A stretch of DNA of 64,000 nucleotides from the NCBI GenBank assembly GCA_963697335.1, contig CAVONQ010000007.1:64001-128000 (forward strand). Reading direction: 5' to 3'. Positions 43,262 to 62,464 of this stretch are shown in pieces (the stretch's first letter is position 1; each line of letters starts with the position of its first letter). The position numbers were made by a program, and so were the translations under genes. The notes beneath the pieces were generated by a model. It was not told the origin of the DNA and did not search any database. It saw only the letters and a program-made list of their open reading frames with translations. This DNA is from an uncultured cyanobacterium. GTDB lineage: Bacteria > Cyanobacteriota > Cyanobacteriia > PCC-6307 > Cyanobiaceae.

Positions 43262-44582
43262 TCAGCGAGTAAGGATATTGTAAAGAGAGGCAGCATTCAA
43301 CAAGGGGCCGAGGGGTGCCACTGCCTGCGTCAGAGTGTCATTAAAGCGGGTCCAGTTGTTACGGGCCACCACGATCACGTCACCATTCCGCAGGGGAGGA
43401 TTGGCCTCCGAACCCAGGGCTGCAGAGGGGTTAAAGGCAACTTCCTTGGACAGTGATTGTACCATCAGCCTCCAACCGCAGCAGTCGGACGTTGGATGCT
43501 TTGGCGCGCTGGGGATCAAGGCCACCGGCGGCCATCACCGCATTGGTCAGAGGGCTATTTGATTTCACCTGCTTGACGCCGGGAAACTCTACTTCACCAA
43601 CGACATTGACCGAGATGGCGTCAGGAGCAAAGTTGGATGCCCCAGTGGCAATGAGGGCTTCATTGGAGCGAACCCCTTCCAGCTTGCCGACCCTAATCAT
43701 GTCACCGTCATTAATCAGCGGATTGACGACCTGCTGATTATTCATCAAGACGCTCAGGTAGTCGAAGTGATATTCGCGGGGTGACTCTCCAGGACCATTG
43801 CCTCGACGTACCAGCACCAGATTGGACAGATCCCCCAGGGCAGTGAGGCCCCCGGCCCGCTGAATCGCATCCACCATGGTGGGCCAGCCATAGGTGGCTA
43901 CGACAGTGCCCTCTACACCGGGGCCCGCCGCTCGCAGTGTTGAGGTCGATGGATCGCGGCTGAGGGTATAAAAGCCAGGACGCTCCAGCTGACCCACCAA
44001 CGAGACCCGCACCGGCCTCGGCGCGATCAGGTCGATGTAGACTAGGGGTCGACGCAGGATCGTGGAGTAAAGGCTTGTGATGCGCTGATTGGATTCATCT
44101 AGGGTCAAGCCCCACACATTCACCGACCCGATCCGAGGCAGGTTCACCGTGCCATCACTGAGAACCTCAGTTTCGGCGCCGTAACCATCAACCTTGAACA
44201 CAGAAATCCGCACCCGATCCCCAGGGGCCAGGCGATAGCGGAAATTGCTTGTCTCAGGGCTGAAGATGGCCCGGGTGGCCTGCTGGGTGGCGCGCGGTGG
44301 CTGCGCCACGGGTTCGGCCAGGATGCGGCTGGGAACGGGAGTGTCTGCTTGGGGGGCGGGTGCATCCCCGGACATCGGGTAAGCCTGGCGCTCGGCCAAC
44401 CAAGGGCCTGAAGTCTGCTTGATGGTTGTGGGGCGCTGCCGGCCTGCAGGCTGCTCCTGGCCTGCCTGAGCGGGGTTGCCCGGAACCATCAGGCCTGGAC
44501 TGGCGAGCAGAAGGCCTGCAGCCCCGATCCGCAGCGGAGCCTGCGCGGCAGCCGTCAAATGGACACGGATAGAGGGCAGCAT
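43262..44582 (-). pseudogene. Polysaccharide export protein (Wza/KpsD-like, SLBB repeats), frameshifted near 43450
   Basis: YRLAPGD, DGTVNLPRIG, GEVEFPG; the C-terminus (NPPLRNGDVIVV) continues in the +1 frame. Confidence 0.85.
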
Positions 44583-44789
44583 CGAAACCTCGACGAACAC
44601 GCTGATCCCCAGCCACTACAGGCGGTTCAGCATTGGGCGTTCAGTGTAAGGGCAGAGTCTGATCTGATCCAGGTGACAGCCTCACAACCGGCAGGCCCCT
44701 GGTGCCCCCAGCCCTGGGCCTTGGTTCGGGGCCACCCCAGGTGGTTTCATGGGCAGCACGACGTCCACCTCGCTCAGCCCCAGCGACCA

Positions 44790-45764
44790 ATGATTCCCCT
44801 GAGCCGAGCACTGATTGATGACATCAAGCCATTCTATTTTTTTTCCAACTACGGACTAACCCTCTTTCTGATTCCGGGAAACACTTTTGAAAACTTTTCG
44901 GACGAAGTTGGCCTGCTCCGAGAGTTAACCTACAGGCAGAAGCTGTCTGGGTCTGGGAACAACAAGGACCTGGATGGCAGAGATCCCTTTTACGATCATT
45001 TCATCCTGGTTGATGATGCCACATTTGCACTAGCCGGGACAGCCCGTCTACAGTTTGTGCCAGCCCAGAATCCCTCATCAGCCCCCAGCACCGGCAGCCT
45101 TACCCACAGCTCAGCAACGTCATATCTTGAGCACGTCTACCCAGGGATCAAGAACTTTCTGATTACCCGCGGCAGCCACCTCGAAATCGGCAGAGTTGCC
45201 ATCTCACCAGCATTCCAGAGGCAACCGGCCTCGCTGATGACCCTGTTCCGGGGAGGCCTTCAAGCAGCTACCGCTTCAGGCTACACAGCAGTTTATGGAT
45301 TAGTGTCTTATAATCACTTTCAATACCCAGGGAGTGTGAACGATTTTTTTCTTCGCTCCCTGATGCTCTCTCCTTTCAGGGACGACAACACCGACATCCC
45401 TCCAGCCCGCTACCCGAGGGGATTCCGCGGCGATGAGCGTCACGCCGATGGTAGCTGCCAATCCATTCAGAAGCTGGAAGGCGAAACCCAGAAGCAGCTG
45501 GCCAGCTTCAAGCTGCCGGTGTTGTTACGCCAATACATCAACCTCATGGGAGCCAAAACCCATGATATTTCCGTCGCCAAAGACTTTAATCAGATCACGG
45601 AGATTCTGATGACAGCCGACCTCACCAAGGTCCCCCGGCGCCGGCTGCAGCATTTCGTCGGCTTTGGCCACGCGCCGGTCTACCGCCAGTTTCCCTGGTT
45701 CCGTGGGCCTTCTGGATCAGACCCAAGCGATGCAAGGCCTGCTGGCAAACCCTTGAGTCAATGA
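44790..45764 (+). CDS. GNAT-fold acyltransferase, OlsB/hemolysin-like (putatively acyl-ACP dependent)
   Basis: LRELTYR, DLDGRD..YDH, LEIGR, LPVLLRQY, DFN. Confidence 0.75.
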   Translation: MIPLSRALIDDIKPFYFFSNYGLTLFLIPGNTFENFSDEVGLLRELTYRQKLSGSGNNKDLDGRDPFYDHFILVDDATFALAGTARLQFVPAQNPSSAPSTGSLTHSSATSYLEHVYPGIKNFLITRGSHLEIGRVAISPAFQRQPASLMTLFRGGLQAATASGYTAVYGLVSYNHFQYPGSVNDFFLRSLMLSPFRDDNTDIPPARYPRGFRGDERHADGSCQSIQKLEGETQKQLASFKLPVLLRQYINLMGAKTHDISVAKDFNQITEILMTADLTKVPRRRLQHFVGFGHAPVYRQFPWFRGPSGSDPSDARPAGKPLSQ

Positions 45765-45824
45765 TAAAATACTGTATGCAGCACACTTGATCGCCCAGCT
45801 CCAGCTCGTCATAGTAGCAAACTC

Positions 45825-46172
45825 TTGACAGATTCAGCCACCCCAAAATCCAACGAAGGACTGCCATCCTCCGAAGGCCACCTGCAATCCAACATCAGCC
45901 TTCCTCTCACCGAGGCTGAGATACTGGCTGGCTTGAAAGATATTTTGGCGCGCATCGCCGGGGCCGATCCTGAGGGAATTGAGCTCGACGCCCTGATCAT
46001 TGATGACGTCGGTGTTGATTCCCTTGGTTTCTACGAGATTTTGATCGAAGCTGATGAAACCATGGGCATCAAGATCGAAGAGAAGGATCTTCTTACTTTC
46101 AAAACCGTACGCGATATCGTTGACTACGTCACGTCCCGATCCGGCACCCTGACCCAGCCAGCTCCGCGCTGA
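45825..46172 (+). CDS. Acyl carrier protein
   Basis: GVDSL phosphopantetheine site, FKTVRDIVDY; acidic. Confidence 0.9.
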   Translation: MTDSATPKSNEGLPSSEGHLQSNISLPLTEAEILAGLKDILARIAGADPEGIELDALIIDDVGVDSLGFYEILIEADETMGIKIEEKDLLTFKTVRDIVDYVTSRSGTLTQPAPR

Positions 46173-46273
46173 GAGTCCCAGGGTCAACCAACCGGGTCGG
46201 AACAGCGGCTTCAAAGCCGTAAGCCCAGCCGCGTAGGTTTGGCCATGTTTCGCGTCGAGCGCTGAACCCAGCC

Positions 46274-47524
46274 GTGGCCAAGGAGAGGATCGCCATCACG
46301 GGCATGGGAGCTCTCTCTCCCCTGGGTGTCGGGGTGGAGAGCAGTTGGCAGGCCTATCTCGGGGGCCGCTCCGGGATCAGCCCCCTGGTGGAGGACTGGG
46401 CCCAGGACCTCCCATCCCGCGTGGCTGGGGTCATCCCAGGAGATCCCACGGCCCAGCTGGAACCCCTGCTCAGGCGCCGGCTCGATCGCTGCTCCCAGCT
46501 CGCCCTGCTCGCAGCCCGTGAAGCCTGGCAGCAGTCAGGCCTGGGCGCAACGGACCCGTCGCCTGAACGCCGGGTTGCGGTGGTGGTGGGCTGCGGCATC
46601 GGCGGTCTGGAGACCATGGGGCAGCAGTACCGGATCCTGCTGGAGCGGGGCCCCTCGCGGGTGAATCCGGTAACGGTGCCGATGCTGATTCCCAATGCGG
46701 GGGCAGGGCAGATCAGCATTGCCCTCGGTGCCCACGGCGGCGCTCACACGCCGGTTTCGGCCTGTGCTTCCTCCGCCGAAGCCCTGCTCTGGGCCCTGAT
46801 GCTGCTGCGCGATGACCGGGCCGATGTGGTGGTGGCGGGGGGGTCGGAGGCCCCCGTGAACCAACTGGGCCTGGCGGGCTTCAGTGCCATGCGCGCCCTC
46901 TCCACCCGTAACAGCACACCGGGGCTGGCCTCCAGCCCCTATGGCCTGGATCGGGATGGCTTCGTGATCGCTGAGGGGGCCGGCATTCTGGTTCTGGAGC
47001 GCGAGGCCGATGCCCACGCCCGCGGCGCCCGCTGTGAGGCATTCCTGCTCGATGCGGGCAGCACCGCCGATGCCCATCACATGGTGTCCCCCGAACCCCA
47101 TGGCACCCAGGCCCGGGCCGCCATGCAGCAGGCCCTGCGGCGCAGCGATCTGGCCGTGGCGGATCTGAGTTTCATCCAGGCCCATGCCACGGGCACGGCC
47201 ATGGGCGATCTGGCGGAAGCCCAGGCGATCGGTGGACTTCTGAAAAAAGCCAACGCGCCCCTACCGGTGACGGCACCGAAAGGACAATTCGGCCACATGC
47301 TTGGCGGGGCCGGCGCGGTGGAAACCATCATGGCCATCAGGTCCCTGGCCAGCGGGCAGGTTCCTGTGAGCGCCAACAGTCAGCCCCAGGATCCCGCCGT
47401 AGAGCTCCACCTAGTCCAGGGGGAACCCACCCGGCTTACGGTGCCGGTTGAGCAACGCTGTGTGCTCAAAAATGCGTTTGGCTTTGGTGGGCACAACATT
47501 GCCCTGGTGTTGCAGGGGGCCTGA
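46274..47524 (+). CDS. fabF: Beta-ketoacyl-ACP synthase II
   Basis: SACASS, AHATGT, GHMLG, FGFGGHN. Confidence 0.93.
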   Translation: MAKERIAITGMGALSPLGVGVESSWQAYLGGRSGISPLVEDWAQDLPSRVAGVIPGDPTAQLEPLLRRRLDRCSQLALLAAREAWQQSGLGATDPSPERRVAVVVGCGIGGLETMGQQYRILLERGPSRVNPVTVPMLIPNAGAGQISIALGAHGGAHTPVSACASSAEALLWALMLLRDDRADVVVAGGSEAPVNQLGLAGFSAMRALSTRNSTPGLASSPYGLDRDGFVIAEGAGILVLEREADAHARGARCEAFLLDAGSTADAHHMVSPEPHGTQARAAMQQALRRSDLAVADLSFIQAHATGTAMGDLAEAQAIGGLLKKANAPLPVTAPKGQFGHMLGGAGAVETIMAIRSLASGQVPVSANSQPQDPAVELHLVQGEPTRLTVPVEQRCVLKNAFGFGGHNIALVLQGA

Positions 47525-49576
47525 TCAGCTGGCCACATGGTGATGACGCTCGGCCCAGCCGGCCGCATCCTGGGAGTAGTAGTCCATCACGCGGCGGGAG
47601 AAACCCTCCCGATGGTTCTCCTCGGCTGGCAACCTGAGATCCTCGGGACGCCCCTGGCGGCAGTGGAGCACGACCCGTGGGGCCGTGAGTCGCTGGGCCA
47701 GCAGGCGCAGTGGTTTGTAGAGCGCCCCAGCCTCGATGCCCTCCAGCCCCCTGTACTCAAACCACCACGGCACCACCGTGGCCCGATGGCGACGGGCCAG
47801 CAGATAGGCACTGGCGGAAGCGCGCTGCAGGATCGACGTCCTCAGGGAACCGTTGGGCGCGATCATCAACTGGCCGTGGCGCTCCAGCACCTGCGACGAC
47901 CTCCAAAGTGTGCTGCGCCGTTGATCGGGATGGCGATGATCCAGGAGCACATGGCCGGCATTGGTGGCGGAACGGTCAAAGAACGGCAGCAACCGGTTCA
48001 GGTGCAACCCTGAGGTGGTGACCGCGGGAATCTGCAGATAGCCCTGGATGGCGAACACGTCAAAGGGGCTGTTGTGATTCCAGATATGGATGCGTCGGCA
48101 CTGATCATCCTGGAGCAACAGGCTGTCGTCCACAATCACGTCAATGCCCACAGCGCGCAGGCCGAAGCGGGCCACCACGGTGAGCAAGCTTCGGGCCAGC
48201 CGCCTCAGCCTCAGAGTGAGAGCGATCAGCTCCAAGGCATAGGCCGCATACATGGCCCCGAAGCAGAACAGGCGATAGATCACCCGCAGGGGCACCACCC
48301 AGCCCAGCCTGGTGGCCTTGGGCCGGCCCAGCTGGGCTGGGCTGGACCGCGCCGAAAGAGCCACCGGCAACGTCTCGCGAAAAGGGAATTCACCGTCAAA
48401 GTTGCCGTTGATCTGGGTGGTGGTGACCAGGTGGTTGTAGAAGCGATAGAACAACGGTCGACTGCTGGTCTGGGGCGAGGCCCAGAAACCATCGAGTGGC
48501 TGTTGATCAGTAAGGCCGGGCAGGTTGTAGAACGTCTGCCCCATCACTTTGGTGGCTGCCGCGTGGAAGAGGGCCTGCAGTCCCACTGTGCTATTCACGG
48601 TGACCACGCCGCGACAGGTGCGGATGAAGGCACTGAGGGGACCATCATGGAAGTAATGAACCCGACCAGCGACACCTTCACGCTCGGCCAGAAGGTGAAT
48701 CAATGATTTGTAATTGTTGTAACCGCGATCGCGGGGATGGTGCTTGAAGGCAAGATGGTCGGATGGGTGAGCATGGGCAGCAAAGGACACGACCACTGTT
48801 TCAATGAAATCGTGCATGCCACGAAAGCCTGACCCTGTGGTGATCTGGGAGTCACTTGAAACCTGAAGAACGGCCAGAAAGAACGACAGGTTTTCGACCA
48901 ACAATTGCTTGAGCTTGCGTTCCTGCAGCCGATACATCCAGTAGCGCACCGAGCCCCGCAGTTGGCACCAGAGAAAGGCTGGCGAGGGCTGCAGCTTATG
49001 CTCCCCTTCAATGATCCTGTAGCGCGTGAAGGCGTGCTGGATGAAGGTGGGTGCTTTCCAGATCTTGCGCCAGCGCCATCCAGGATCAAGGCGTGCCTGG
49101 GGCAGATGGGCCACCGCTGGCAGAGCCTCGTAGAAACTCACCGGCTGGTTGAGATTGGAACGGCAGTTGACGCGATCACGCTCCAGAGTGACATAGTTCG
49201 GCCTGACGTAACCCAGCTCAAAAACATAAGCATCAACGTTCAGGCTGTGGGCCACCTCAATGGCCAGGCGATGGGGATCAATAAAGTCGCCATACATAAA
49301 CAGGTGGCGGATTCCCTTTTCCTGAATCACCTCTCGCAGAAAAGAGGGCCATTCCTCCATGGAACCTGAAAACGGAATCCTGGCCTGCCGAGGAAATCCG
49401 AATTCGTGCAGCGGATAGGAAATCTTGTAAACCGGCACACCGCAATCGTGCAGATATCGCCAAAGGCGCGAGAAGAACAGACCGATCGGGCCCATCAGGA
49501 GCAGCACCGGGCCTTCGATCTGAATCTGAACGCTGGCCAATGCCACACCTGCGGCCGGATGAACGCATTCTCCCAT
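47525..49576 (-). CDS. kpsS: KpsS/LipB capsule protein fused to a PlsC-like acyltransferase domain
   Basis: ELGYVRP, LQVSSDSQ, KHHP.DRG, TVNSTVGLQAL; C-terminal NHNSPFD and APNGS; start uncertain. Confidence 0.88.
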   Translation of the reverse strand: MGECVHPAAGVALASVQIQIEGPVLLLMGPIGLFFSRLWRYLHDCGVPVYKISYPLHEFGFPRQARIPFSGSMEEWPSFLREVIQEKGIRHLFMYGDFIDPHRLAIEVAHSLNVDAYVFELGYVRPNYVTLERDRVNCRSNLNQPVSFYEALPAVAHLPQARLDPGWRWRKIWKAPTFIQHAFTRYRIIEGEHKLQPSPAFLWCQLRGSVRYWMYRLQERKLKQLLVENLSFFLAVLQVSSDSQITTGSGFRGMHDFIETVVVSFAAHAHPSDHLAFKHHPRDRGYNNYKSLIHLLAEREGVAGRVHYFHDGPLSAFIRTCRGVVTVNSTVGLQALFHAAATKVMGQTFYNLPGLTDQQPLDGFWASPQTSSRPLFYRFYNHLVTTTQINGNFDGEFPFRETLPVALSARSSPAQLGRPKATRLGWVVPLRVIYRLFCFGAMYAAYALELIALTLRLRRLARSLLTVVARFGLRAVGIDVIVDDSLLLQDDQCRRIHIWNHNSPFDVFAIQGYLQIPAVTTSGLHLNRLLPFFDRSATNAGHVLLDHRHPDQRRSTLWRSSQVLERHGQLMIAPNGSLRTSILQRASASAYLLARRHRATVVPWWFEYRGLEGIEAGALYKPLRLLAQRLTAPRVVLHCRQGRPEDLRLPAEENHREGFSRRVMDYYSQDAAGWAERHHHVAS

Positions 49577-49685
49577 GCTGCACCGGCCGGGCCGGGCTGA
49601 AACCCAGTGCTGACAGGCACTGAGGCAGGTGATGGGTCCTCGGGACAAGGCGTAGGATCTGTCAAAACAATCTTCGGGACAAAGG

Positions 49686-51887
49686 ATGGGGTCCAGCCCT
49701 CAGTCGGCCGCTTCCCCGCTCCTGCCCAGCCCCAGTCCCGACCCTGCGGCCGCCGCCGCAACCAGTGCTGCCTACGGCGGCCCGGGACCGTTGATCGGCC
49801 TTCCCGACCCCCTCGTGCTGGCCCACACCACCCTGGAGGCGTTGCTGGCTCCGGCCAGGGTCGTGGTGGGGCGCCGTGCCTGCAGGCGCAGCGACCTGGA
49901 GGCGTTGCTGGTGTGGGGACGGCGCCGCAGCGGGCTCTGGGGCGAACGAGAGGCCGTGCGCCGTGACCTGCCCCTGTGGCGCGTCGAGGACGCCTTCCTG
50001 CGCTCGGTGGATCCAGGGCCCAAGGCACCACCGCTTGGCATCCTGCTGGACGATCGGGGGATCCACTACGACGCCTCCGGGCCCAGCAGGCTGGAGACCC
50101 TGATCGCCTCGGGCCTGGGGCCTGCCCAGCAGCAGCGTGCCCGGCAGCTGGCGGCAGCCTGGCGGGAGCACCGGGTCAGCAAGCTGAACGGGTCCCGGGA
50201 GTCGCCGCCCCCCGATGGCCCCTTCGTGCTGGTGGTGGATCAGGTGGCGGGCGATGCCGCCATCCGCCACGGCGCCGCCTCCGCAGCCAGCTTCCTGGCG
50301 ATGCTCGAGGCAGCACTGCAGGACTTTCCCACTCACCAGGTCGTGCTGAAGACCCACCCCGACGTGGTGAGCGGGCGGCGCCGGGGGCATTTCCCGGCGG
50401 AGGTCTTCCAGCACCCCAGGGTGCTGGCCTGTGCCGATGGGGGCCATCCGGCGGCCCTGCTGGAAGCCGCCAGCGCCGTGTATGTGGTCACCTCTCAGAT
50501 GGGTTTCGAGGCCATGATCTGGGGGCGGCCCGTGCACTGCTTCGGCATGCCCTTCTACGCCGGCTGGGGGCTCAGCCACGACCGCCTGCCCGCGCCAGAC
50601 CAGGCGGCCCGGGCAAAAGGCGCCCGCGCAGGAGGTGCCCAGCTGGAGAATCTGGTGCATGCCTGCCTGGTGGGGTACGCCCGCTACCTCAACCCCGAAA
50701 CCCGCCAGCCCACCAGTCCGGAGGCTCTGATCGCCCATATCGGCCTGCAGCGGCGCCAGCGGGCCGCGGTGCCCCCGGCCCTGGAGGTGTTCGGGGTCGC
50801 CGGCTGGAAACGCCAGGCCGTGCGCCGCTTTCAGCGCACCCTCAGTCCAGGCCGACTTCGCTTTCGCCCCTTCCATGCCAGGCCGACCCGGGAGGCCGGT
50901 TGGCGCTGCCTGGTGTGGGGCAACCGGGTGGGGCTGGGACTGCGCAAGGCTGGCAGCCCCCTGATCCACGCCGAAGACGGCTTTCTGCGCTCAGTGGGGC
51001 AGGGATGGTGGCTGCGCTGGGTGCCGCCGGTGTCCTGGGTGGTGGACCACTCCGGCATCTACTACGACGCCTCCTGCGCCTGCGACCTGGAGACCTTCCT
51101 GGCCGAACACCACTTCACGGCCGCCGAGCGACAGCGGGCAGCGGCCCTGCGGCAGCGGATCGTGGCGGCGGGGGTGACGAAATACAACCTTCGCGCACCC
51201 CTGTGGAGCCGTCCCTCAGACCTGGGCCGCAGACAGGTGCGCCTGGTGCCCGGCCAGGTGGAGGTGGACCTCTCGATCCGTTACGGCGTGCCGAAGCAGG
51301 CCAGTGTGCGCAGCAATCTGCAGCTGCTGCAAGCGGTGCGGGCGGCCTATCCGGACGATTTCCTGATCTACAAGCCCCATCCGGATGTGGTCTCCGGGCG
51401 TCAGAAACCCGGCCCAGGGGAACCGGAGGCTCACCGCCACTGCGATCTGGTGCTGGTCGAGGCGCCGATGGACCATCTGCTCCAGGAGGTGGACAGCGTG
51501 CACGTGCGCACCTCGATCACCGGCTTCGAAGCCCTGCTGCGGGGCATCCCTGTGGAGACCTGGGGCATGCCCTTCTATGCCGGCTGGGGGCTCAGCCGCG
51601 ACCAGCTGCAGTGCGAGCGGCGGGGCCGGGCCCTGGTGCTCGATGACCTGGTCTATGGCGCCCTGATCCACTATCCGATCTATCTGAGCCAGGGCTCGGG
51701 GGACTTCACCACGCCGGAGCGGGCCGTGGAGGAGCTGGGGCTGCTGCGCCGCGATCCCGGCGCCTTCCCCACCGCCCTGCCCCGCTGGCTGGAGCTGCTG
51801 GGGCTGGATCCGCCGCCGGAGCTGCGCTTCCGGCTGGCCCAGATCCGAGCGCGGCTGCGTGCCTGGAGCCCCGATGGGCGCTGCTAG
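49686..51887 (+). CDS. kpsC: KpsC/LipA capsule beta-Kdo-transferase-family protein (two GT modules)
   Basis: Duplicated EDxFLRS, GIxYD, QxxxD, KxHPD, GFEA, GMPFYAGWGL. Confidence 0.93.
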   Translation: MGSSPQSAASPLLPSPSPDPAAAAATSAAYGGPGPLIGLPDPLVLAHTTLEALLAPARVVVGRRACRRSDLEALLVWGRRRSGLWGEREAVRRDLPLWRVEDAFLRSVDPGPKAPPLGILLDDRGIHYDASGPSRLETLIASGLGPAQQQRARQLAAAWREHRVSKLNGSRESPPPDGPFVLVVDQVAGDAAIRHGAASAASFLAMLEAALQDFPTHQVVLKTHPDVVSGRRRGHFPAEVFQHPRVLACADGGHPAALLEAASAVYVVTSQMGFEAMIWGRPVHCFGMPFYAGWGLSHDRLPAPDQAARAKGARAGGAQLENLVHACLVGYARYLNPETRQPTSPEALIAHIGLQRRQRAAVPPALEVFGVAGWKRQAVRRFQRTLSPGRLRFRPFHARPTREAGWRCLVWGNRVGLGLRKAGSPLIHAEDGFLRSVGQGWWLRWVPPVSWVVDHSGIYYDASCACDLETFLAEHHFTAAERQRAAALRQRIVAAGVTKYNLRAPLWSRPSDLGRRQVRLVPGQVEVDLSIRYGVPKQASVRSNLQLLQAVRAAYPDDFLIYKPHPDVVSGRQKPGPGEPEAHRHCDLVLVEAPMDHLLQEVDSVHVRTSITGFEALLRGIPVETWGMPFYAGWGLSRDQLQCERRGRALVLDDLVYGALIHYPIYLSQGSGDFTTPERAVEELGLLRRDPGAFPTALPRWLELLGLDPPPELRFRLAQIRARLRAWSPDGRC

Positions 51888-51921
51888 GTTCGGGCTCAGT
51901 GCGGACCCCGGAGTCCTGGGG

Positions 51922-52680
51922 ATGGAACTGCCGATCCCGCGCCACGACTGGCCCGAACCGCTGATCGACCCCTCCCTGCCGCCCCTCGCCCTGATTCCGG
52001 CCCGGGGAGGGTCCAAGGGCATTCCCCACAAGAATCTCCAGCTCCTGGGCGGCCTCCCCCTGGTGGGACGCACGGTCCAGAGCGCCCTCGCCGCCCATTG
52101 CATCGGCCGAGTGGTGGTCAGCACCGACGATGGGGCGATCGCGGCGGCGGCCGCCGCCGCAGGCGCCGAGGTGGTGACCCGGCCTGCGGCACTGGCCGGG
52201 GACGGGGCATCGTCGGAGTCGGCCCTGGTGCACGCTCTGCGCGATCTGGGTCAGCAGGGCGCCCTACCCCGCATGTTCGTCTTTTTGCAGTGCACCTCAC
52301 CCTTCACCACCGGCGAGCAGATTGACCGGGTGGTGCAGGGGCTGCAGGGATCAGAGGCCAACCTGGCCTTTGCGGTAACGCCGTGGCACGGCTTCCTGTG
52401 GGGCCGCGATCCTGACGGCTGGGGCGTGGGCCTCAATCACGACGCCGGCCGCCCCCGCCAGAGGCGCCAGGACCTGGAGCCCTGCTTCCTCGAGACAGGC
52501 TCCATCTATGCCCTGCGCACCCAAGCGTTCCTGAGTGCCGGCAGCCGCTTCGTGCCTCCCCTGCTGCCGGTGGAGATCGAGGCGCTCTCCCCGGAGATTG
52601 ACACCCCGGCAGATCTTGCCCTCTGCCGTCAGCTGGCCCCCCTGCTTGATGGCGCCACTCCCGGAGGGCTGGGCGGATGA
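51922..52680 (+). CDS. neuA: Acylneuraminate (nonulosonate) cytidylyltransferase
   Basis: IPARGGSKGIPHKN, VVVSTD, LQCTSP, EIDTPAD. Confidence 0.9.
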   Translation: MELPIPRHDWPEPLIDPSLPPLALIPARGGSKGIPHKNLQLLGGLPLVGRTVQSALAAHCIGRVVVSTDDGAIAAAAAAAGAEVVTRPAALAGDGASSESALVHALRDLGQQGALPRMFVFLQCTSPFTTGEQIDRVVQGLQGSEANLAFAVTPWHGFLWGRDPDGWGVGLNHDAGRPRQRRQDLEPCFLETGSIYALRTQAFLSAGSRFVPPLLPVEIEALSPEIDTPADLALCRQLAPLLDGATPGGLGG

Positions 52681-53978
52681 GCCGCCTGCAGGACCGGCAG
52701 ATCGCCGCCATCGCGAGCTTCGACTCCTTTGGCAAGACCGCCATGGCGATGTTGTCGGTGTGCCGCAAGCAAGGGGCAATGACCACCCTGTTCCTGCTGG
52801 AAATTCAGGGCCGCCGTCTGTCGCGGCGGCAGCTGATCGAAATCCAGCGGATCGACGCCAAAGTGACGATCGTGCGCCAGGACTGGCAGACGCTCCGCCA
52901 GATCCGCGCCACCCTCGCCGGGCTCGATGCCCTCGTGCTGGGCCTGGACGGCCAGCGCACCCGCGAGCTGCAGATGCTGCTGCGTTCGGAGATGCCTGGC
53001 GGACGCTGGCCCCTGACGGTGAGCGCCTACCCCGGCATCCTCTTCCGCCACCAGATCGAGGGCATGATGGATCGCTCCGGGGCCGATCTGCTCTGCCTCA
53101 ACTCCCCGGTGGACCTGGCGCTCTACAGCCACGCCTGCGAAGCCCTGGGGATCTCGGCCAGCAACGCCGTGGTGACGGGTCTGCCGATCCTCTGGAACCT
53201 TCACCCAGGCCGCCGCGGCCCCGTGGAGAAGCCGAGCATCGTCTTCTTTGAACAGCCCTCGGTGCCAGGCAATCCTCTGCAGCGCCACTACGTCTGCAAC
53301 CGGCTCAACGACCTCGCCAAGCGCTGGCCAGACCACACGGTGATCTTCAAGCCGCGCACCTCCGGGGTGGAGCGCACCCTGCACAGGCGCCATGGCGAGA
53401 TGGCCAGCCGCATCGAGAAGCTGATGCGAAAATCGCCGAATCTGCAGATCAACTACAAGCCGAGCCTCGCCCTGCTACGCCAGTGTGGCTGCGCCATCAC
53501 CGTGTCCTCGACGGCGGCCATGGAGGCGATGGCCCTGGGCATCAGCACCCGCATCGTGGCCGACCTGGGGGTGAACGAAACCCTCGGCAACCACTACTTC
53601 GTGGCCTCAAACACGGTGCGCAGCTTCGAGGCGATCATTGCCGATCCGTTCACGCCGATCCACGACGAGGCCTGGCTGGACAGCCACGGCCGCTGTCAGG
53701 ACGGCCGCGAACGCTTCATCGAGGCCATGGCCGAGCGGCTCGAACGGGGCAGGGAGGCCCCAGCTGGCAGCCCCTCCACCACCTCCCCGGGGCCGCCGGG
53801 CTGGGGGGCCGAGCCCTGGCAGCAGTATGCCCTCCGCCACGGCGGCCGGCGGATGCTGAGCAGCGCCGGCAACCGCTCCCGCCTCAAGACCAGCCACCGA
53901 GGCAAGAACGTGATGCGCTATCTGCGCGACCTGGTGCTCGGCCTGCACTGGGTTGAGGACTTCGTCCGCGGCCGATGA
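52677..53978 (+). CDS. Putative glycosyltransferase (DUF6716-like), copy 1
   Basis: FDSF, D...LN, FFEQP, FKPR, VSSTAAMEA. Confidence 0.7.
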   Translation: MSRLQDRQIAAIASFDSFGKTAMAMLSVCRKQGAMTTLFLLEIQGRRLSRRQLIEIQRIDAKVTIVRQDWQTLRQIRATLAGLDALVLGLDGQRTRELQMLLRSEMPGGRWPLTVSAYPGILFRHQIEGMMDRSGADLLCLNSPVDLALYSHACEALGISASNAVVTGLPILWNLHPGRRGPVEKPSIVFFEQPSVPGNPLQRHYVCNRLNDLAKRWPDHTVIFKPRTSGVERTLHRRHGEMASRIEKLMRKSPNLQINYKPSLALLRQCGCAITVSSTAAMEAMALGISTRIVADLGVNETLGNHYFVASNTVRSFEAIIADPFTPIHDEAWLDSHGRCQDGRERFIEAMAERLERGREAPAGSPSTTSPGPPGWGAEPWQQYALRHGGRRMLSSAGNRSRLKTSHRGKNVMRYLRDLVLGLHWVEDFVRGR

Positions 53979-55024
53979 GGGTGCTGCTGGTGAGTGACAG
54001 CCCGGCGAGCCGCTTCGCCTGCGGGGCCCTCGCCTCGGCCCTGGAGTCTGCGGGAGCGGAGGTGTGGGTGGATGCACCCCTGGAGCTGGAGGCCCTCAGC
54101 TGCAGCGATCTGCTGCTCGATCTGGACGGGGTGGGTCTGTTCATCAGCCCCCTGCAGGTGCCCCCCTTCCTGCGACGACTGCGGCAGGCTGCCGCCCTGA
54201 GGGGCCGTACGCCGGTGGCCGTGTTCAGTGGGCCGTCCACGCCCCTGGTGGGCGATGACCTGGCAAAGGATCTGCTGCCACGGCTCGGGGTCGACCTGCT
54301 CTGCCTGCAGGGCCCGCGCCAGCAGGAGGAGCTGGCAGACCTGGGGCGCACGAGCGGGCAATCGCCGCCGCCGACGGCCTTGCTGGGGTGGTGGGGGCTG
54401 ACGCCGAAGCTCCCTGCCGCGGCACCGGGATCCCGGCCACGGCGCCTGGTGTTCCTGGAGCAGGCGATGCTGCCGCCCGCCCCAGGAGCGCGCCTGCGGC
54501 TGCTGGAAGTGCTGGAGCGCCTCTGCGCCAGCTCTCCGGCCTGGGAGGTGATCCTTCAGAGCGATCCATTGCAGGAGGCACTGGCCCACGCAGGTGATTA
54601 CCCTGATTCGGCGGGTGGCGAAGCCAGCGAACCCAGCCTGGCCGCGTTGCTGGAGCAGCGCCCGCCCCTGGCCAATCTGCGCCTGGCCCCGCCCTCGGCC
54701 TGGGCCCGCAGCCTCGATCGAGCCGGCGTCTGCGCCACGATCAGCAGCCCCCTGCTGTGGGAGGCCCTGGGCCGTCAGCTGCCGCTGCTGTTGCTGGGCG
54801 ACTATGGCATCCGCTCCGATATGGAGGGGCCCCTACTGTTTGGCTCAGGGCTGATGGGCCGGATCACCGGCTGCGAAAACCTCGAGGAGCTGCTGCATCT
54901 GCCCTGCCCCAATCCCGGCTGGCTGCGGGAGCTGGGCTGGGAGATCGGCCCCGGTGCCGGTGCCCTGATCCAGTGGCTGGCGGACAGGCCGGCGCAGGCC
55001 ATTGGCCTGGAGGAGTGGCGATGA
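53975..55024 (+). CDS. Putative glycosyltransferase (DUF6716-like), divergent copy 2
   Basis: LVSDS, DLLCLQG, VFLEQ, TISSPLLWEA, GDYG. Confidence 0.6.
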   Translation: MRVLLVSDSPASRFACGALASALESAGAEVWVDAPLELEALSCSDLLLDLDGVGLFISPLQVPPFLRRLRQAAALRGRTPVAVFSGPSTPLVGDDLAKDLLPRLGVDLLCLQGPRQQEELADLGRTSGQSPPPTALLGWWGLTPKLPAAAPGSRPRRLVFLEQAMLPPAPGARLRLLEVLERLCASSPAWEVILQSDPLQEALAHAGDYPDSAGGEASEPSLAALLEQRPPLANLRLAPPSAWARSLDRAGVCATISSPLLWEALGRQLPLLLLGDYGIRSDMEGPLLFGSGLMGRITGCENLEELLHLPCPNPGWLRELGWEIGPGAGALIQWLADRPAQAIGLEEWR

Positions 55025-56343
55025 GCGCCGTTCTGCTGGTTGCCGACTCAGACAGCCAGATGCTGTACTGCGAGGCCCTGGCCCGGGGGCACCGCGCCGC
55101 CGGCCTTGAGCTCACCATCCACCTAATCCCCCGGGACGGCACCCCAGAGGCGGTGAAGGGGCGCATGGAACAGCTGGGAACGGTGCAACAGGGAAGCCTG
55201 GGCACGCTGCTGCAGGACCCAGGCCTCAGCCGCTTCGCGGCGATCGGCGTGTTCCTCACCGGCAGCAAGATCGCCGGCTTCCGCAGCGCCTACCTCCGCT
55301 CTCGTCAGCACGATCCCCAGCGCAGGGCCCTGCTCTTCTGCGGGTTCAACGGCGTGGTGCTGGAACGCTTCGAGGAGGCCCTCACCTGGCGCCTGGGCTA
55401 CGACCTGATCTGTCTCAACGGCCCGCGCGACCAGGCGCGCTTCGAGCGCTTCCTGCGACACACGCCCTTTCGGGCCCAGCGCGCGGTGCTCACCGGATTG
55501 CGGCGCACCAGGGTGGCGGAGGTCAGGCCCCTGGCCGAACGGCCCCGGCAGCTGGTGTTCGCGGAACAGGTGGCCATGCCCGCGAGCCTGGAGGAGCGGC
55601 GCCAGCTGGCCAGGCTGGTGGTGGACCTGGCCCATCGGTTCAGCGACTGGCAGGTGGTGCTGAAGCCTCGGGTGGCCCCCCATGAGGCCACGTTCCATGA
55701 GTTCTGCGAGCACATCACCACCACCCTCGAACAGGTGTGCCGTCGCCGTCCGGCCAACCTGGCGATCTCCTACGCCCCGCTGGCCGCGCTGCTGGCCGAC
55801 AGCCGCCTGTTCGCCACGCTGTCATCCACGGCGTTGTTCGATGCCCTCGACCATGGCTGCTCAGCGCTGGTGATGGGCGACTTCGGCCTGCGCCCCGACC
55901 TGGGCAGCGACTTCTTCGGGGGCTCAGGACTGGTTCGCAATCTGGCAGGCATCGACGACCTCGACGCCCTGGTGGGACTGCAGGGAAATCCGGCCTGGCT
56001 CCATTGGGTGGGGTACGACGGGGCCTGCAACCCCAGCCAGCTGTTCGACGCCATCAAGCGGCATGGGCTGCAGCAGGACGGTGCCCCAGCTCAAGACCCA
56101 CTGGAGCTGGAGCATCGGGGCTACGTGGTGAATTCCGCCGACCTCTCCAGCAACCAGCTGCGGCTCGCTGCGGAAGCGGCCATCGCGGCTCACGACTACG
56201 CCGAGGCGGGGCAACTGCTGGAGATGGCGGCCCTGCAGCGGCCTCACAATGGCAACATCCAGCGCAGACTGAAGGCGGTGCGTTGCCCCAGTCATCTCGG
56301 GCGGCGCCTGCTGCTGCTGGCCAGCCCCAGGTTCAACCTGTAA
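55021..56343 (+). CDS. Putative glycosyltransferase (DUF6716-like), copy 3, with TPR-like tail
   Basis: VADSDSQ, DLICLNG, VFAEQ, LKPR, LSSTALFDA, FGGSGL. Confidence 0.7.
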   Translation: MSAVLLVADSDSQMLYCEALARGHRAAGLELTIHLIPRDGTPEAVKGRMEQLGTVQQGSLGTLLQDPGLSRFAAIGVFLTGSKIAGFRSAYLRSRQHDPQRRALLFCGFNGVVLERFEEALTWRLGYDLICLNGPRDQARFERFLRHTPFRAQRAVLTGLRRTRVAEVRPLAERPRQLVFAEQVAMPASLEERRQLARLVVDLAHRFSDWQVVLKPRVAPHEATFHEFCEHITTTLEQVCRRRPANLAISYAPLAALLADSRLFATLSSTALFDALDHGCSALVMGDFGLRPDLGSDFFGGSGLVRNLAGIDDLDALVGLQGNPAWLHWVGYDGACNPSQLFDAIKRHGLQQDGAPAQDPLELEHRGYVVNSADLSSNQLRLAAEAAIAAHDYAEAGQLLEMAALQRPHNGNIQRRLKAVRCPSHLGRRLLLLASPRFNL

Positions 56344-56522
56344 GCTGGCCGCGGCGATGGAGATTACACACTGTTCACCTACAAAGCGGACTAAGGCCCT
56401 CCAGCTGAGTTAGCCCACAGGGATGACAACCTGCGTTGACCAATGGGGCAAACAAAATGGCTTTGCTAACTGGGATTCCAAAACGCTTCAATCGTCGATG
56501 CTGTTGTTAGAGGGGCAAGGCC

Positions 56523-58847
56523 ATGCAGATCGAGCGCAATTTCACTCAGTTTGTGGTCTTCGCCGAAGACACTGTCCTGGCGGCCTTATCCAAAATCACA
56601 GCCAATAAGTCACGGCTGATTTTTGTCGTCTCGGAAAGTGGCATTCTTCAGGGCGTGCTCAGCGACGGTGACTTTCGACGCTGGGTGGCGAACTGCAGCC
56701 CGATCGATCTGAACGCCCCGGTGACGCGGGCCATGAATCCCCAGTGCCGCACCGGAAGGGTCGGCATGAGCCCAGCCGATCTGGCGCCCCTGTTCAGCCC
56801 CCAGATCCAGCTGGTGCCGCTGCTCGATAGCCACGGACGCATCGCCGCCGTGGCCATTGAAGGAGCCCGGGAACTGCGGATTGCAGGGCGTTTGATCGGT
56901 GATGGCCGTGCAAGCTTCTTGATTGCGGAAATTGGCAATAACCACAACGGCTGCTTCGATCTGGCCCTGAAGCTGATCGATGCAGCGGCAGCAGCAGGCG
57001 TGGACTGCGCCAAGTTCCAGATGCGAGAGATGAAGAATCTCTATGTCAATGCCGGAGACAGCAATGACATGGCCTCTGATCTGGGCACTCAGTACACCCT
57101 CGATCTGCTGGAGCGGTTCCAGTTGACGGACGACGAGCTCTACCGCTGCTTTGACTACACCGCCCGCAAGGGCATGATCCCCCTGTGTACACCGTGGGAT
57201 GTCAGCAGCCTCGAAAAGTTGCAGCGCTGGGGTATGGAGGCCTTCAAGGTGGCCTCGGCAGACTTCACCAATCACGCCCTGCTCACGGCCATCGCCGCCA
57301 CGGGCAAGCCGCTGGTCTGCTCCACCGGCATGGCCACGGAGCTGGAGATCAAGAGCGGCATTCGACACCTGCGCCAACAAGGGGCTCCGTTTGTCCTGCT
57401 GCACTGCAATTCCACCTATCCCACTCCCTACAAGGATGTGAATCTGCGCTACCTCGCCCGCCTGCGAGAACTGTCCGGCGGCCCGGTGGGCTATTCGGGC
57501 CACGAGCGCGGCATTGAGGTGCCCATCGCCGCTGTGGCCCTAGGGGCCACGGTGGTCGAAAAACACATCACCCTTGATCCTGGCATGGAGGGAAACGACC
57601 ACAAGGTGAGCCTGCTGCCGGAGGAGTTTCGAAGGATGGTCGAGGCTATTCGAGCCGTGGAAGACTCCATGGGCAGCGATGCTGAGCGCGCCATCAGCCA
57701 GGGAGAGCTGATGAACCGCGAAGTGTTGGCGAAAAGTCTCGTGGCAGCCTGCCCGATCCCGCGTGGCACTGTGATCGAGAACTCCATGGTGCGGGTTCAG
57801 AGCCCCGGCCAAGGGCTGCAGCCGTACCGTCTCAATGATCTGCTGGGGCACACGCTGAGCAGCGACAAGAATCCCGGCGACTTCTTCTTTGAATCTGATC
57901 TCGGGGAGGATGGAGTCCAGGCACGTCATTATCACTTCAGCAATCCATTTGGAGTGCCAGTTCGCTATCATGATCTTGAATTATTCAGCAAGGCCAGCAA
58001 TCTCGATCTGGTGGAGATTCACCTGAGCTACAAAGACTTAGAAATCCCCACTGCCAAAGCCATTCCGAACCGCATTCCCTTGGGACTCGTGGTTCATGCC
58101 CCTGAATTGTTCGCCGGAGATCACACCCTGGATCTCTGCAGCATTGACAGCGACTACAGACAGCATTCGATCCAGCAACTACAAAGGGTGCTGGACCTAG
58201 CGAAGGTCTTACGCGAGCACTTCAAGTGTCCCGAAGACGTGTTGCTGGTGACCAACATGGGTGGGTTTTCAGCCCATCAACACTTGTTGCCAGAAGCGAA
58301 GCAGCCGATGATGGATGCACTTGAAGCCAGTCTGTCAGCCCTGCGCTGTGATGGTGTGGAAATCATCCCGCAGACCATGCCACCTTTCCCATGGCATTTC
58401 GGGGGGCAACGGTTCCACAACTTGTTTGTTGATCCCGACTTTATCGAGTCGTTCTGCAAGGAGCATCACTATCGTGTCTGCCTGGATGTCTCCCACTCGA
58501 AACTGGCCTGCAACCACCTTGGCCAATCGTTTCATGGTTTCCTCGAAAGGATTCTCCCCTTCACTGCCCACCTGCATCTGGCCGATGCCAGTGGCGTGGA
58601 TGGGGAAGGCCTGCAAATCGACGAAGGTGAAATCGACTGGCCTTTACTGTTTCGGATGCTGCGGCACCACGCCCCCACGGCCTCGTTCATCCCCGAGATC
58701 TGGCAAGGCCACAAGAACCAGGGGGAGGGAGCCTGGCGTGCACTTGAGCGACTTGAACGCCATGACCAGCCCAAGAGCTCCATGGCGGTCTCCAGTCCGT
58801 CCGCAGTGGAGAGCGCGCGTGGTTTCCGGGCTTCCCTGATCAACTGA
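56523..58847 (+). CDS. neuB: Nonulosonate synthase with CBS, NeuB, SAF and xylose-isomerase-like TIM-barrel domains
   Basis: SDGDFRRW; IAEIGNNHNG, KVASAD, HCNSTYP, GYSGHERG, EKHITLD; PPFPWHFGG, CLDVSH, HLHLADA, PEIWQGH. Confidence 0.92.
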   Translation: MQIERNFTQFVVFAEDTVLAALSKITANKSRLIFVVSESGILQGVLSDGDFRRWVANCSPIDLNAPVTRAMNPQCRTGRVGMSPADLAPLFSPQIQLVPLLDSHGRIAAVAIEGARELRIAGRLIGDGRASFLIAEIGNNHNGCFDLALKLIDAAAAAGVDCAKFQMREMKNLYVNAGDSNDMASDLGTQYTLDLLERFQLTDDELYRCFDYTARKGMIPLCTPWDVSSLEKLQRWGMEAFKVASADFTNHALLTAIAATGKPLVCSTGMATELEIKSGIRHLRQQGAPFVLLHCNSTYPTPYKDVNLRYLARLRELSGGPVGYSGHERGIEVPIAAVALGATVVEKHITLDPGMEGNDHKVSLLPEEFRRMVEAIRAVEDSMGSDAERAISQGELMNREVLAKSLVAACPIPRGTVIENSMVRVQSPGQGLQPYRLNDLLGHTLSSDKNPGDFFFESDLGEDGVQARHYHFSNPFGVPVRYHDLELFSKASNLDLVEIHLSYKDLEIPTAKAIPNRIPLGLVVHAPELFAGDHTLDLCSIDSDYRQHSIQQLQRVLDLAKVLREHFKCPEDVLLVTNMGGFSAHQHLLPEAKQPMMDALEASLSALRCDGVEIIPQTMPPFPWHFGGQRFHNLFVDPDFIESFCKEHHYRVCLDVSHSKLACNHLGQSFHGFLERILPFTAHLHLADASGVDGEGLQIDEGEIDWPLLFRMLRHHAPTASFIPEIWQGHKNQGEGAWRALERLERHDQPKSSMAVSSPSAVESARGFRASLIN

Positions 58848-59719
58848 TGCCGCATCACTCCGTACTGCGGGCTGGATCCAGCGCGGCCGCCGAACCTGAC
58901 ATGGAGGCGGTGCTCGCAGCAATCACCAGGGGGCTGGATGGCGCCGACCACGACGCTGTGGCCAGGATTCCAGCCAACACACTTCCCAACTTCATCGTGA
59001 TTGGGGCAGCCAAGTCAGCCACCACCACGCTGACCCGGGTGTTGGGCAGACATCCAGACATCTTCATGGCCAAGCCCAAGGAACCGAAGTTTTTCGGCAG
59101 ACGTTACGACAAGGGCTGGAACTGGTACGCCAAGCTCTTCCAGGACGGTGCCCAGGCCAGGTTACGCGGAGAAGGCAGCACGATGTACAGCAGCACCCTG
59201 CCCAGTTTTGAACACACAGCCGCCTTGATGCATAGGTATCTGCCAGAAACCAAGATCATCTATATGACCAGGCATCCCCTAGACCGGCTGGTGTCACAGT
59301 GGCGTCACATCAAAGGAAAGCATCCCGGCACAAGTGACTTTTCCGAGTTACTGAAGACATCAAGACTGCAGCATTTACTACTGGGTTGTTCCATGTATTA
59401 TGAGCGCATCAGCAGTTTCAGAAGCGTCTTCCATGATCAACAGATTCTGTGCCTGACTTTTGAAGATCTCCTGGCTTCACCCCAGCAGACACTACAAGTC
59501 GTGCTTGACTTTTTAGGACTTTCAACCGAGCCACGACAACTCCTCAACGAAGGAACCCACTTGCCGTTGGTCAACGAAGCAGGGCAGCAGGGCCGCCGCT
59601 ACGTTGAAAAGCCTGAGTGGCCTTGGCTGATGAAGTGGCGTGTGACCCAGCGCCTGAAGGCGGACACAAGGCAATTCCTGAGCTACATCGGCAAGCCAGC
59701 CGACTTCTGGAAACTATGA
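58847..59719 (+). CDS. PAPS-dependent sulfotransferase
   Basis: IGAAKSATTTL, KEPKFF, RHPLDRLVS. Confidence 0.88.
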   Translation: MPHHSVLRAGSSAAAEPDMEAVLAAITRGLDGADHDAVARIPANTLPNFIVIGAAKSATTTLTRVLGRHPDIFMAKPKEPKFFGRRYDKGWNWYAKLFQDGAQARLRGEGSTMYSSTLPSFEHTAALMHRYLPETKIIYMTRHPLDRLVSQWRHIKGKHPGTSDFSELLKTSRLQHLLLGCSMYYERISSFRSVFHDQQILCLTFEDLLASPQQTLQVVLDFLGLSTEPRQLLNEGTHLPLVNEAGQQGRRYVEKPEWPWLMKWRVTQRLKADTRQFLSYIGKPADFWKL

Positions 59720-59763
59720 TCACGTGCTGCCTGCCCGGCCGGCTGGCTCTCCAGATCTGAATC

Positions 59764-60876: not shown

Positions 60877-60892
60877 CCGCCTATGCAAACCC

Positions 60893-61526: not shown

Positions 61527-61668
61527 CAAGGCCAGCACGACATGGACGTCGGCGCGAGAGTTGAGTCCACCATTATATTCTGAGCGCAGCCTCGCCGTCA
61601 GGCCGATGTAGTCTTGGGGTTTGGTGACCCTGCATTCTAGAGTCTCTCAACAGTCTGGGATACGCGTG

Positions 61669-62410: not shown

Positions 62411-62464
62411 ACACTTTCATGGGACAACCGGCTCACTTGAGAGCTGGCTTGAAGCCCCGCACCC

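Follow-up and report, generated by a model that had tools for sequence, protein, structure and literature searches.

Only two anchors of capsules exported by ATP-binding cassette (ABC) transporters are known in detail, phosphatidylglycerol (PG) bearing Kdo (3-deoxy-D-manno-octulosonic acid) and the diacyl-HexNAc (HexNAc, N-acetylhexosamine) of the Vi antigen. The former, PG-(β-Kdo)n in the group-2 capsules of Escherichia coli and Neisseria, is described as a conserved rule in systems that use KpsS and KpsC (PMC12220298). The Vi lipid end is made with the acyltransferase VexE, which is encoded in the capsule locus, and is not taken from bulk phospholipid (PMC12220298), and the Sinorhizobium rkp-1 region (rkpA, rkpG-J) is a further precedent for a locus-encoded capsule lipid (PMC3557214). 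The "lipid carrier" genes of rhizobial capsule loci are still unexplained. The rkpA gene is a large multidomain gene resembling those of polyketide synthases (PKS), and Burkholderia wcb loci also hold PKS-like genes. The present analysis concerns a 64,000-nucleotide stretch of DNA from an uncultured cyanobacterium, referred to here as the window (C7:64001-128000 of assembly G000, 2.58 Mb in 18 contigs), and five genes within it that encode an OlsB-like GNAT acyltransferase, an acyl carrier protein (ACP), a FabF-like β-ketoacyl-ACP synthase (KS), a KpsS-acyltransferase fusion, and KpsC. Pfam and NCBIfam models together with motifs bear out these identities, which were first given in an initial annotation, and the five genes probably constitute a lipid-end module that makes or tailors the lipid terminus of the capsule. 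A dedicated capsule lipid, as the initial annotation had envisaged, has its precedents in rkp-1 and in VexE.

Comparison with these systems reveals both shared and distinct components. Like the group-2 systems of E. coli and Neisseria, the genome encodes KpsS, a dual-module KpsC, KpsD, KpsM, KpsT, KpsE, and kdsA. In contrast to those systems, its KpsS scores below the cut-off of the KpsS model, the conserved core includes an OlsB-like GNAT, whether or not ACP and KS accompany it, and KpsS carries a lysophospholipid acyltransferase (LPLAT) domain of ~270 residues, which E. coli KpsS, judged by its length, does not have. The locus resembles that of the Vi antigen in serving an ABC-transporter capsule, but Vi systems are without KpsS and KpsC and the window has both (PMC12220298). 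The resemblance to rkp-1 is one of description and not of sequence comparison, and the window differs in having a discrete KS and ACP together with a GNAT and an LPLAT fusion.

The acyltransferases of the locus have their closest described counterparts in aminolipid synthesis. Acyloxyacyl aminolipids are made by an established two-step route, in which an OlsB-type N-acyltransferase acts first and a PlsC-family O-acyltransferase second, and OlsB uses a 3-hydroxyacyl chain carried on AcpP (PMC12971839, PMC11631085). OlsB/OlsA and the fused protein OlsF, which make ornithine, glutamine, and glycine lipids, combine a PF13444 N-acyltransferase with a PlsC-family O-acyltransferase and draw on acyl-ACP donors, and the locus has the same pair of enzymes. 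In contrast to OlsB, OlsA, and OlsF, both locus enzymes fall far below the equivalog cut-offs, the O-acyltransferase is fused to the glycosyltransferase KpsS and not to the GNAT, and the pair comes with its own ACP and KS. The amine that the locus GNAT would acylate is an assumption, and the relevant text of PMC12971839 reports no aminolipid from cyanobacteria.

The gene cluster itself is known. Doré et al. 2023 (PMC10119275) catalogued it in marine Synechococcus and Cyanobium as Syn-eCAG 8, island Syn_GI125, and the published gene rows (supplementary file 5, rows 99-112) list kpsD, an acyl-CoA N-acyltransferase, a PP-binding ACP, fabF2, kpsS, kpsC, neuA, a GT-like gene, two hypothetical genes, neuB, and a sulfotransferase in an order identical to that in the window. 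That study treats Syn-eCAG 8 as a capsule cluster and discusses its distribution in the ocean, and its text and gene rows on the cluster mention neither a KpsS-acyltransferase fusion nor a lipid-anchor role. A 12-gene Kps cluster is mentioned by Doré et al. 2020, and a phylum-wide survey of extracellular polysaccharide genes describes a confined distribution of KpsS and KpsC in cyanobacteria, with no acyltransferase in the text seen (PMC4594306). Furthermore, the literature returned by our searches contained no description of a KpsS-acyltransferase fusion or of a capsule-linked OlsB homologue. Consequently, it is the fusion and the lipid-anchor interpretation, and not the cluster, for which no published account was found in these sources.

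The KpsS-PlsC fusion is a single open frame of 707 residues on the minus strand (47525-49648) that matches both PF05159 and PF01553. Translation probably starts at 49576, because the closest homologue (96% identical, among the matches listed) has 683 residues. The KpsS domain, of the β-Kdo transferase family (48332-49576, minus strand), matches PF05159 over residues 118-417 (E 7.6e-54, 183.7 bits, cut-off 20). Its score against the NCBIfam KpsS equivalog NF050054 (E 8.1e-81, 272.3 bits) lies below the cut-off of 600, and by these scores the domain is a diverged relative, with a predicted transfer of Kdo from CMP-Kdo to a lipid acceptor. A search of the Protein Data Bank (PDB) sequences with the fusion returned only marginal WbbB-type matches (E 0.13).

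The C-terminal PlsC/LPLAT-type domain of the fusion (47525-48331 including the stop codon, minus strand; residues ~440-707) matches PF01553 over residues 520-630 (E 3.4e-6, 27.3 bits, cut-off 23) and scores 21-24 bits against TIGR00530, below the cut-off of 103. The domain contains the motifs NHNSPFD (HX4D) and APNGS, the latter replaced by FPSGS in distant members; we take APNGS to be the FPEGT-like motif III of LPLATs. The catalytic motifs are conserved: N85, H86, D91, G126, P159, and G161 are each conserved at 90% or more in an alignment of 37 sequences, and the NH.{4}D motif is present in 24 of 24 loci. The predicted structure of the domain (predicted local distance difference test, pLDDT, 89.2) shows two N-terminal membrane-associating helices (residues 7-39 and 43-60) followed by an LPLAT fold. 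Its best fold match is PlsC of Thermotoga maritima (5kym; E 3.8e-5, TM 0.54-0.62), and GPAT, PatA, and LpxM follow.

The initial annotation had placed a PlsC-type domain on kpsS, and this arrangement is not peculiar to the window. Both PF05159 and PF01553 are carried by 101 of the 120 listed homologues of the fusion; the remaining 19 match PF05159 only, several being short and others having 630-650 residues with a tail in which no domain was detected. All named homologues among the matches listed come from Cyanobium, Synechococcus, or cyanobacterial metagenome-assembled genomes (MAGs). The fusion is therefore real and conserved. When 1.84 billion representatives were searched exhaustively with the C-terminal 268 residues, no more than 58 relatives reached E<=1e-3, indicating that the PlsC-like domain is a small, divergent branch of the LPLAT superfamily. 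A word-index search for short stand-alone relatives found none, and the exhaustive search recovered stand-alone relatives of 240-266 residues from Prochlorococcus-like MAGs and Tara contigs.

The second β-Kdo transferase, KpsC, is encoded divergently from kpsS on the plus strand (49686-51887). It matches PF05159 in four stretches (E 9.5e-77) and contains two tandem Capsule_synth (GT107-type) modules, which were also recovered in the genome search, as expected for the dual-module family. The kpsC gene is likewise divergent from kpsS in locus L002 and in the closest relative, but is co-directional and upstream of kpsS in the other loci, which points to a local inversion inside a conserved core.

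The GNAT gene (44790-45764, plus strand) encodes an OlsB-family (Acetyltransf_5) protein of 324 residues, a putative acyl-ACP-dependent N-acyltransferase. The open reading frame (ORF) spans 44559-45764, and the start at 44790 was set by a Met conserved in the alignment. The protein matches PF13444 (E 4.6e-10, 40.5 bits, cut-off 22.4), a domain carried by 120 of 120 GNAT homologues among the matches listed, and its alignment to the OlsF model (E 6.3e-15) spans positions 322-569 of 570, which cover the whole C-terminal N-acyltransferase half. An atlas look-up gave the "L-ornithine N(alpha)-acyltransferase family" as the nearest named cluster outside the GNAT's own (score 0.96). By analogy with these families, the putative product is an N-acyl-amino-acid lipid. 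The GNAT is the only PF13444 gene in the G000 assembly. The top VIA matches of its predicted structure (pLDDT 84), the model of which includes one extra N-terminal residue, include three proteins that use acyl-ACP, LasI (Z 13.0) and, each at Z 12.1, FeeM and TofI, with which ordinary GNATs are tied. Searches of PDB sequences with the GNAT alone and with its profile gave 0 matches at E<=10. A complex prediction for the GNAT and the PlsC-like domain gave a score of 0.00, which is evidence neither way.

The GNAT and the fusion are joined by a conserved gene arrangement. As had been noted at the outset from the ORF coordinates, the GNAT-ACP-KS run abuts a convergent kpsS: the KS stop ends at 47524 and the stop codon of the fusion begins at 47525, leaving zero spacer. 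The same convergence of GNAT-ACP-KS on the fusion is found in 18 of 20 related loci (L001-L020) from species-representative genomes. Of the two exceptions, L019 reaches a contig edge after the KS, and in L018, which lacks ACP and KS, the GNAT and the fusion are immediate neighbours. Among 250 genomes drawn from the family, the PlsC-like domain was found in 28 and the GNAT in 34, one of them marginal. In all 28 carriers of the PlsC-like domain the GNAT lies on the opposite strand, 95-1910 bp away; the 29 fused matches of this search all fall within frames of 665-1230 residues. The capsule-type KS accompanies the pair in 25 of the 28 and is absent from G127, G148, and G152, where, as in L018, the GNAT still stands directly against the 3' end of the fusion. 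Repeating the family search with a stand-alone form (P0263) as query returned the identical 28 genomes and no new split forms.

A split form of the fusion was found on an AT-rich metagenome contig (L044), in which kpsS ends one base before a separate PlsC-like gene of 252 residues. It is oriented towards a GNAT gene whose product shares 29% identity with the window GNAT (E 4e-27), and the pairing of GNAT with kpsS and PlsC-like domain thus persists in the split form at 25-29% identity. Overall, the pairing outlasts divergence to 25-35% identity, one fission, and the disappearance of ACP and KS. That these genes strictly co-occur and adjoin one another is not a chance juxtaposition, and the recurrence suggested as a check on the initial annotation (18/20 related loci, 28/28 carriers), as well as its pairing of an OlsB-type GNAT with a PlsC-type enzyme, holds across the family and in the split form. 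In a phylum-wide draw of 300 cyanobacterial genomes searched with the KpsS domain at E<=1e-10, only G000 matched, and the 13 genomes of its family in that draw held no carrier; the system was therefore found only within the family among the genomes searched. Separately, genome G123 has a stand-alone PlsC-like copy beside the fused one (L035, G123:C1:2176770-2178326), located between the KS and the fused copy. Its frame of 270 residues has a guanine-cytosine (GC) content at third codon positions of 0.34 in a region of GC 0.56, and it may be a recent acquisition. Loci L003 and L013 have content typical of picocyanobacteria, and the titles of their MAG records, Bradyrhizobium and Mesorhizobium, look mislabelled.

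The position of the GNAT in the capsule system can be judged from loci that differ in sugar genes. The fetched flanks of L006, L018, L032, L033, and L034 are without genes for the CMP-synthetase, DUF6716 proteins, and NeuB, and all five loci keep kpsD, GNAT, kpsS, and kpsC. The retention of the GNAT in these loci indicates that it belongs to the export and anchor core and not to the serotype-like sugar genes, and that it follows kpsS, kpsC, and kpsD weighs against a role in sugar acylation. In such a role, the GNAT, ACP, and KS would together produce a short acyl group of the 3-oxo or 3-hydroxy type (e.g., 3-hydroxybutyryl), carried in N-linkage by the repeat unit's nonulosonic acid; in a variant, the GNAT would be a CurA-type loading decarboxylase that primes the KS, and the PlsC-like domain would be unrelated. 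N-acylated nonulosonic acids are common in capsules, and the GNAT-ACP-KS order resembles a loading module. Additionally, the CurA GNAT-L loading domain (2ree) is the top Foldseek match of the GNAT model (E 5.8e-6, TM 0.40/0.60), with the decarboxylase GNATs of GphF and SxtA also on the list. However, 2ree ranks only 32 by VIA (Z 11.0), the fold scores are tied over many GNATs, and the sequence of the GNAT is that of PF13444 and the OlsF C-terminal half rather than of a decarboxylase family. The GNAT is also retained without ACP and KS in L018, G127, G148, G152, and L044, and all three genes are retained in L006 and L032, whose fetched flanks hold no nonulosonic acid genes. Decoration of the sugar by these enzymes is thus improbable.

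The ACP and KS appear to be accessory to the module. The ACP (45825-46172, plus strand) is a divergent member of its family (PF00550, E 1.1e-11, 45.3 bits) that falls below the cut-offs of the NCBIfam ACP equivalog models (63 vs 84). Its start codon is uncertain, with conservation from about residue 25-37, and it has the DSL phosphopantetheine site, the DS[LMI] pattern being present in 21 of 21 locus homologues. The KS (46274-47524, plus strand) is a FabF-like β-ketoacyl-ACP synthase II paralogue, named fabF2 in the published catalogue (PF00109, 6.6e-52; PF02801, 8.9e-26). It scores 414.5 bits against the KAS II subfamily model PRK07314, above the cut-off of 387, and 425.3 bits against the TIGR03150 equivalog, below the cut-off of 493.75. 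The Cys/His/His triad is present, and all 23 homologues examined fit loose patterns for it. A Pfam scan of the ORFs at 41938-62484 of the window revealed no acyltransferase, ketoreductase, dehydratase, or enoyl reductase, so the locus cannot make a fatty acid alone. The claim that the locus makes its own acyl chain was therefore overstated, and this part of the original interpretation fell, while its identities, pairing, linkage, and precedents stood. The ACP and KS could at most add one C2 unit or pass a chain to a private carrier, and their absence from 3 of the 28 fusion-carrying genomes of the family, from L018, and from L044 indicates that they are accessory.

In G000, PF00550 and PF00109 match nothing apart from the ACP and KS of the locus. 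The possibility that they serve as the sole housekeeping copies was rejected, as 18 of 18 same-genus relatives have a separate housekeeping FabF, ~40% identical to the capsule KS, and 15 of the 18 also hold the capsule-type KS. The presence of this separate FabF in relatives indicates that the ACP and KS of the locus are extra copies. In G012, the housekeeping fabF adjoins a transketolase gene in a ~15-kb stretch without counterpart in G000. Comparison with complete relatives (G012:C1:269000-305000, L029) shows that G000 is without the housekeeping acpP/fabF region, the transketolase, and a KdsB-like gene, and that the G012 stretch matches G000 over no more than its final 500 bases, close to where contig C16 begins. 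Such a pattern looks like an assembly gap rather than a loss, which would account for the ACP, KS, and cytidylyltransferase of the capsule locus looking like the only copies. Similarly, the CMP-sugar synthetase of the locus is the sole KdsB/NeuA-type gene detected in the G000 assembly, but its being the only such gene of the cell was rejected since complete relatives carry further copies.

On the basis of the OlsB/OlsA analogy, a two-step aminolipid anchor is tentatively proposed, a mechanism that may operate here and that is the best single one in that it gives every conserved part a job. First, the GNAT would take a (3-hydroxy)acyl chain carried on an acyl carrier protein and use it to N-acylate a small amine, assumed to be an amino acid or amino alcohol bearing a free hydroxyl. 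Next, the PlsC-type domain on KpsS would attach another acyl chain, in the way that OlsA follows OlsB. The KpsS domain of the same polypeptide would then place the first β-Kdo on the diacylated lipid, and KpsC would lengthen the Kdo linker, upon which the sulfated, nonulosonic-acid-containing polymer would be built. The private ACP and the FabF-like KS would function as an accessory supply line, in which the KS condenses an acyl chain from fatty acid synthase with malonyl-ACP' to give 3-oxoacyl-ACP', and the housekeeping FabG converts this to 3-hydroxyacyl-ACP'. Lineages without the ACP and KS would use AcpP. We infer each chemical step, the acceptor, the order of the steps, and the use of the product as a KpsS acceptor from the domains and their conserved association.

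Several observations weigh against this proposal. The GNAT lies far under the equivalog cut-offs (54.7 vs 620 bits for OlsF, 19.6 vs 350 for OlsB), and its fold matches are tied with ordinary GNATs, so that acyl-ACP users are not set apart. The PlsC-like domain is not separable into PlsC or OlsA, with the generic AGPAT model matched by 36 of 37 members, PlsC by 11 of 37, and OlsA by 7 of 37. The genomes counted are mutually related, and the 28 of 28 do not represent 28 independent events. In addition, genus g20 keeps the GNAT and a KS (~50% identical) in 4 of 4 genomes with the PlsC-like domain undetected. In the g20 locus L032 (G037:C16:24000-42000), which retains kpsC, kpsS, and GNAT and has the capsule-type KS on the plus strand at 9600-10838, the C-terminal tail of KpsS is without NHx4D. 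No gene of the conserved core hints at the amine to be acylated. Cyanobacteria make phosphatidylglycerol, and a new acceptor for KpsS is therefore not needed. KpsS enzymes studied to date are described as acting on phosphatidylglycerol (PMC12220298), and OlsB homologues exist in cyanobacteria, yet ornithine lipids have not been found there according to the text of PMC12971839.

Several of these points suit a different mechanism, in which KpsS starts on ordinary PG and the fused domain acylates or reacylates lyso-PG or lyso-PG-Kdo. The special chain may be carried on the private ACP and made with the KS, and the GNAT would have a side role such as shifting acyl groups onto or off the private ACP. 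Such remodelling agrees with the PG-Kdo rule for KpsS/KpsC systems, and in fold the fused domain most resembles a lysophosphatidate acyltransferase; the PlsC model is also matched by more members than that of OlsA. Fusion to KpsS suits an enzyme that acts on the substrate or product of KpsS, and a Kdo pathway is available, as kdsA was found in G000 and KdsB-like genes in complete relatives. However, remodelling of PG offers no clear job for the GNAT, which is the most faithful partner of the fusion (28/28 genomes, the split form, and the minimal loci), and the characterised members of the GNAT family named in PMC12971839 and PMC11631085 are aminolipid N-acyltransferases. A PG anchor with acyl remodelling is unlikely, but it is the main rival of the aminolipid anchor and a serious one.

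The enzymes might instead form a phosphorus-sparing pathway for a bulk membrane aminolipid that merely rides in the capsule island and does not supply the anchor. The OlsB/OlsA logic would fit such a pathway (PMC12971839), and the cluster is described as relatively enriched in Fe-replete waters, including those low in P and low in N (PMC10119275). This explanation is very improbable, as nearly every carrier has the O-acyltransferase in one polypeptide with KpsS, and in the split form its gene follows kpsS at a distance of 1 nt. Moreover, wherever the neighbouring genes were checked in the draw of 250 genomes, the GNAT was accompanied by the fusion (28 genomes) or by kpsS and kpsC (L032, the single genome of g20 checked for kpsS); that check did not extend to G271, to the marginal G075, or to three further g20 genomes. 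Returning to the two-step aminolipid anchor, we infer that its product would be an aminolipid free of phosphorus that KpsS primes directly. In its full form, the claim that picocyanobacterial capsules are anchored by a phosphorus-free, twice-acylated aminolipid, made by the OlsB-like GNAT and the KpsS acyltransferase domain and Kdo-glycosylated by KpsS, rather than by phosphatidylglycerol, is doubtful.

The five genes form part of a capsule island of ~43 kb in a high-GC, Cyanobium-like picocyanobacterium. The host assignment is based on the high GC content of the window, its apcE, apcA, and apcB genes, and the nearest relatives of the locus genes among the matches listed, which come from Cyanobium, Aphanothece, and Synechococcus. 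The GC content of the GNAT (0.54) and ACP (0.53) genes is markedly below that of the flanking core genes. The island contains an ABC-transporter (group-2-like) set with KpsD, KpsM, KpsT, and KpsE and, as judged from the encoded proteins, the capsule system is of the ABC-transporter type with a complete set of genes. The KpsD/Wza-like outer-membrane polysaccharide export protein (43431-44600, minus strand; PF02563, 1.3e-17, and SLBB domains) is divergent from the GNAT operon, and its position adjoining the GNAT is kept in related loci. The kpsT, kpsM, and kpsE genes lie 21 kb past the end of the window (G000:C7:147535-150795, corresponding to L037:1535-4795), where KpsE (E 4.9e-53) and KpsM (5.5e-27) were matched and a divergent ABC ATPase was found. 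The island extends ~22 kb beyond the window (G000:C7:126001-162000; L036, L037), and this part also includes GT2 genes, a GDP-mannose 4,6-dehydratase, an epimerase, a further sulfotransferase, and several ORFs without a family.

Pfam and NCBIfam scans place the sugar part of the island at 51859-62484 on the plus strand. The CMP-sugar synthetase gene (51859-52680) is followed by three DUF6716 paralogues (52677-56343), a tandem trio of "putative glycosyltransferases" in which the second and third overlap in the ORF calls and which are candidate polymerising transferases of the capsule. The next gene (56523-58847) encodes a nonulosonic acid synthase of the NeuB type as a fusion of 774 residues with CBS, NeuB, SAF, and xylose-isomerase-like TIM barrel (AP_endonuc_2) domains, which is conserved in most related loci at 67-94% identity. 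Sulfotransferase genes and a GT61-like gene occupy 58847-62484. Between two intact sulfotransferase genes (58847-59719 and 61621-62484), the region 60893-61526 (plus strand) contains a 104-residue ORF whose match to Sulfotransfer_2 is confined to the N-terminal part, overlapped by a 150-residue ORF without a family, and may be a broken sulfotransferase gene. On the minus strand at 62465-63704, a C-methyltransferase is apparently split across two overlapping ORFs, one (62862-63704) matching Methyltransf_13 and Methyltransf_23 and the other (62465-62914) holding the Methyltransf_14 C-terminal domain, through either a frameshift or a sequencing error.

A priming enzyme fused to a lipid acyltransferase and locked to an N-acyltransferase of the aminolipid type offers a compact, genetically tractable system in which to study the lipid range of KpsS. 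If the aminolipid proposal is true, ABC-transporter capsules would have a third type of anchor besides PG-Kdo and diacyl-HexNAc, and cyanobacteria their first aminolipid pathway. As published metagenome work describes the cluster as relatively enriched in iron-replete waters, including nutrient-poor ones, the chemistry of the anchor could bear on phosphorus economy. The carriers are harmless and abundant phototrophs, and by an ecological extension of the same reasoning, anchor chemistry could also affect the cell-surface properties that govern grazing and phage attack.

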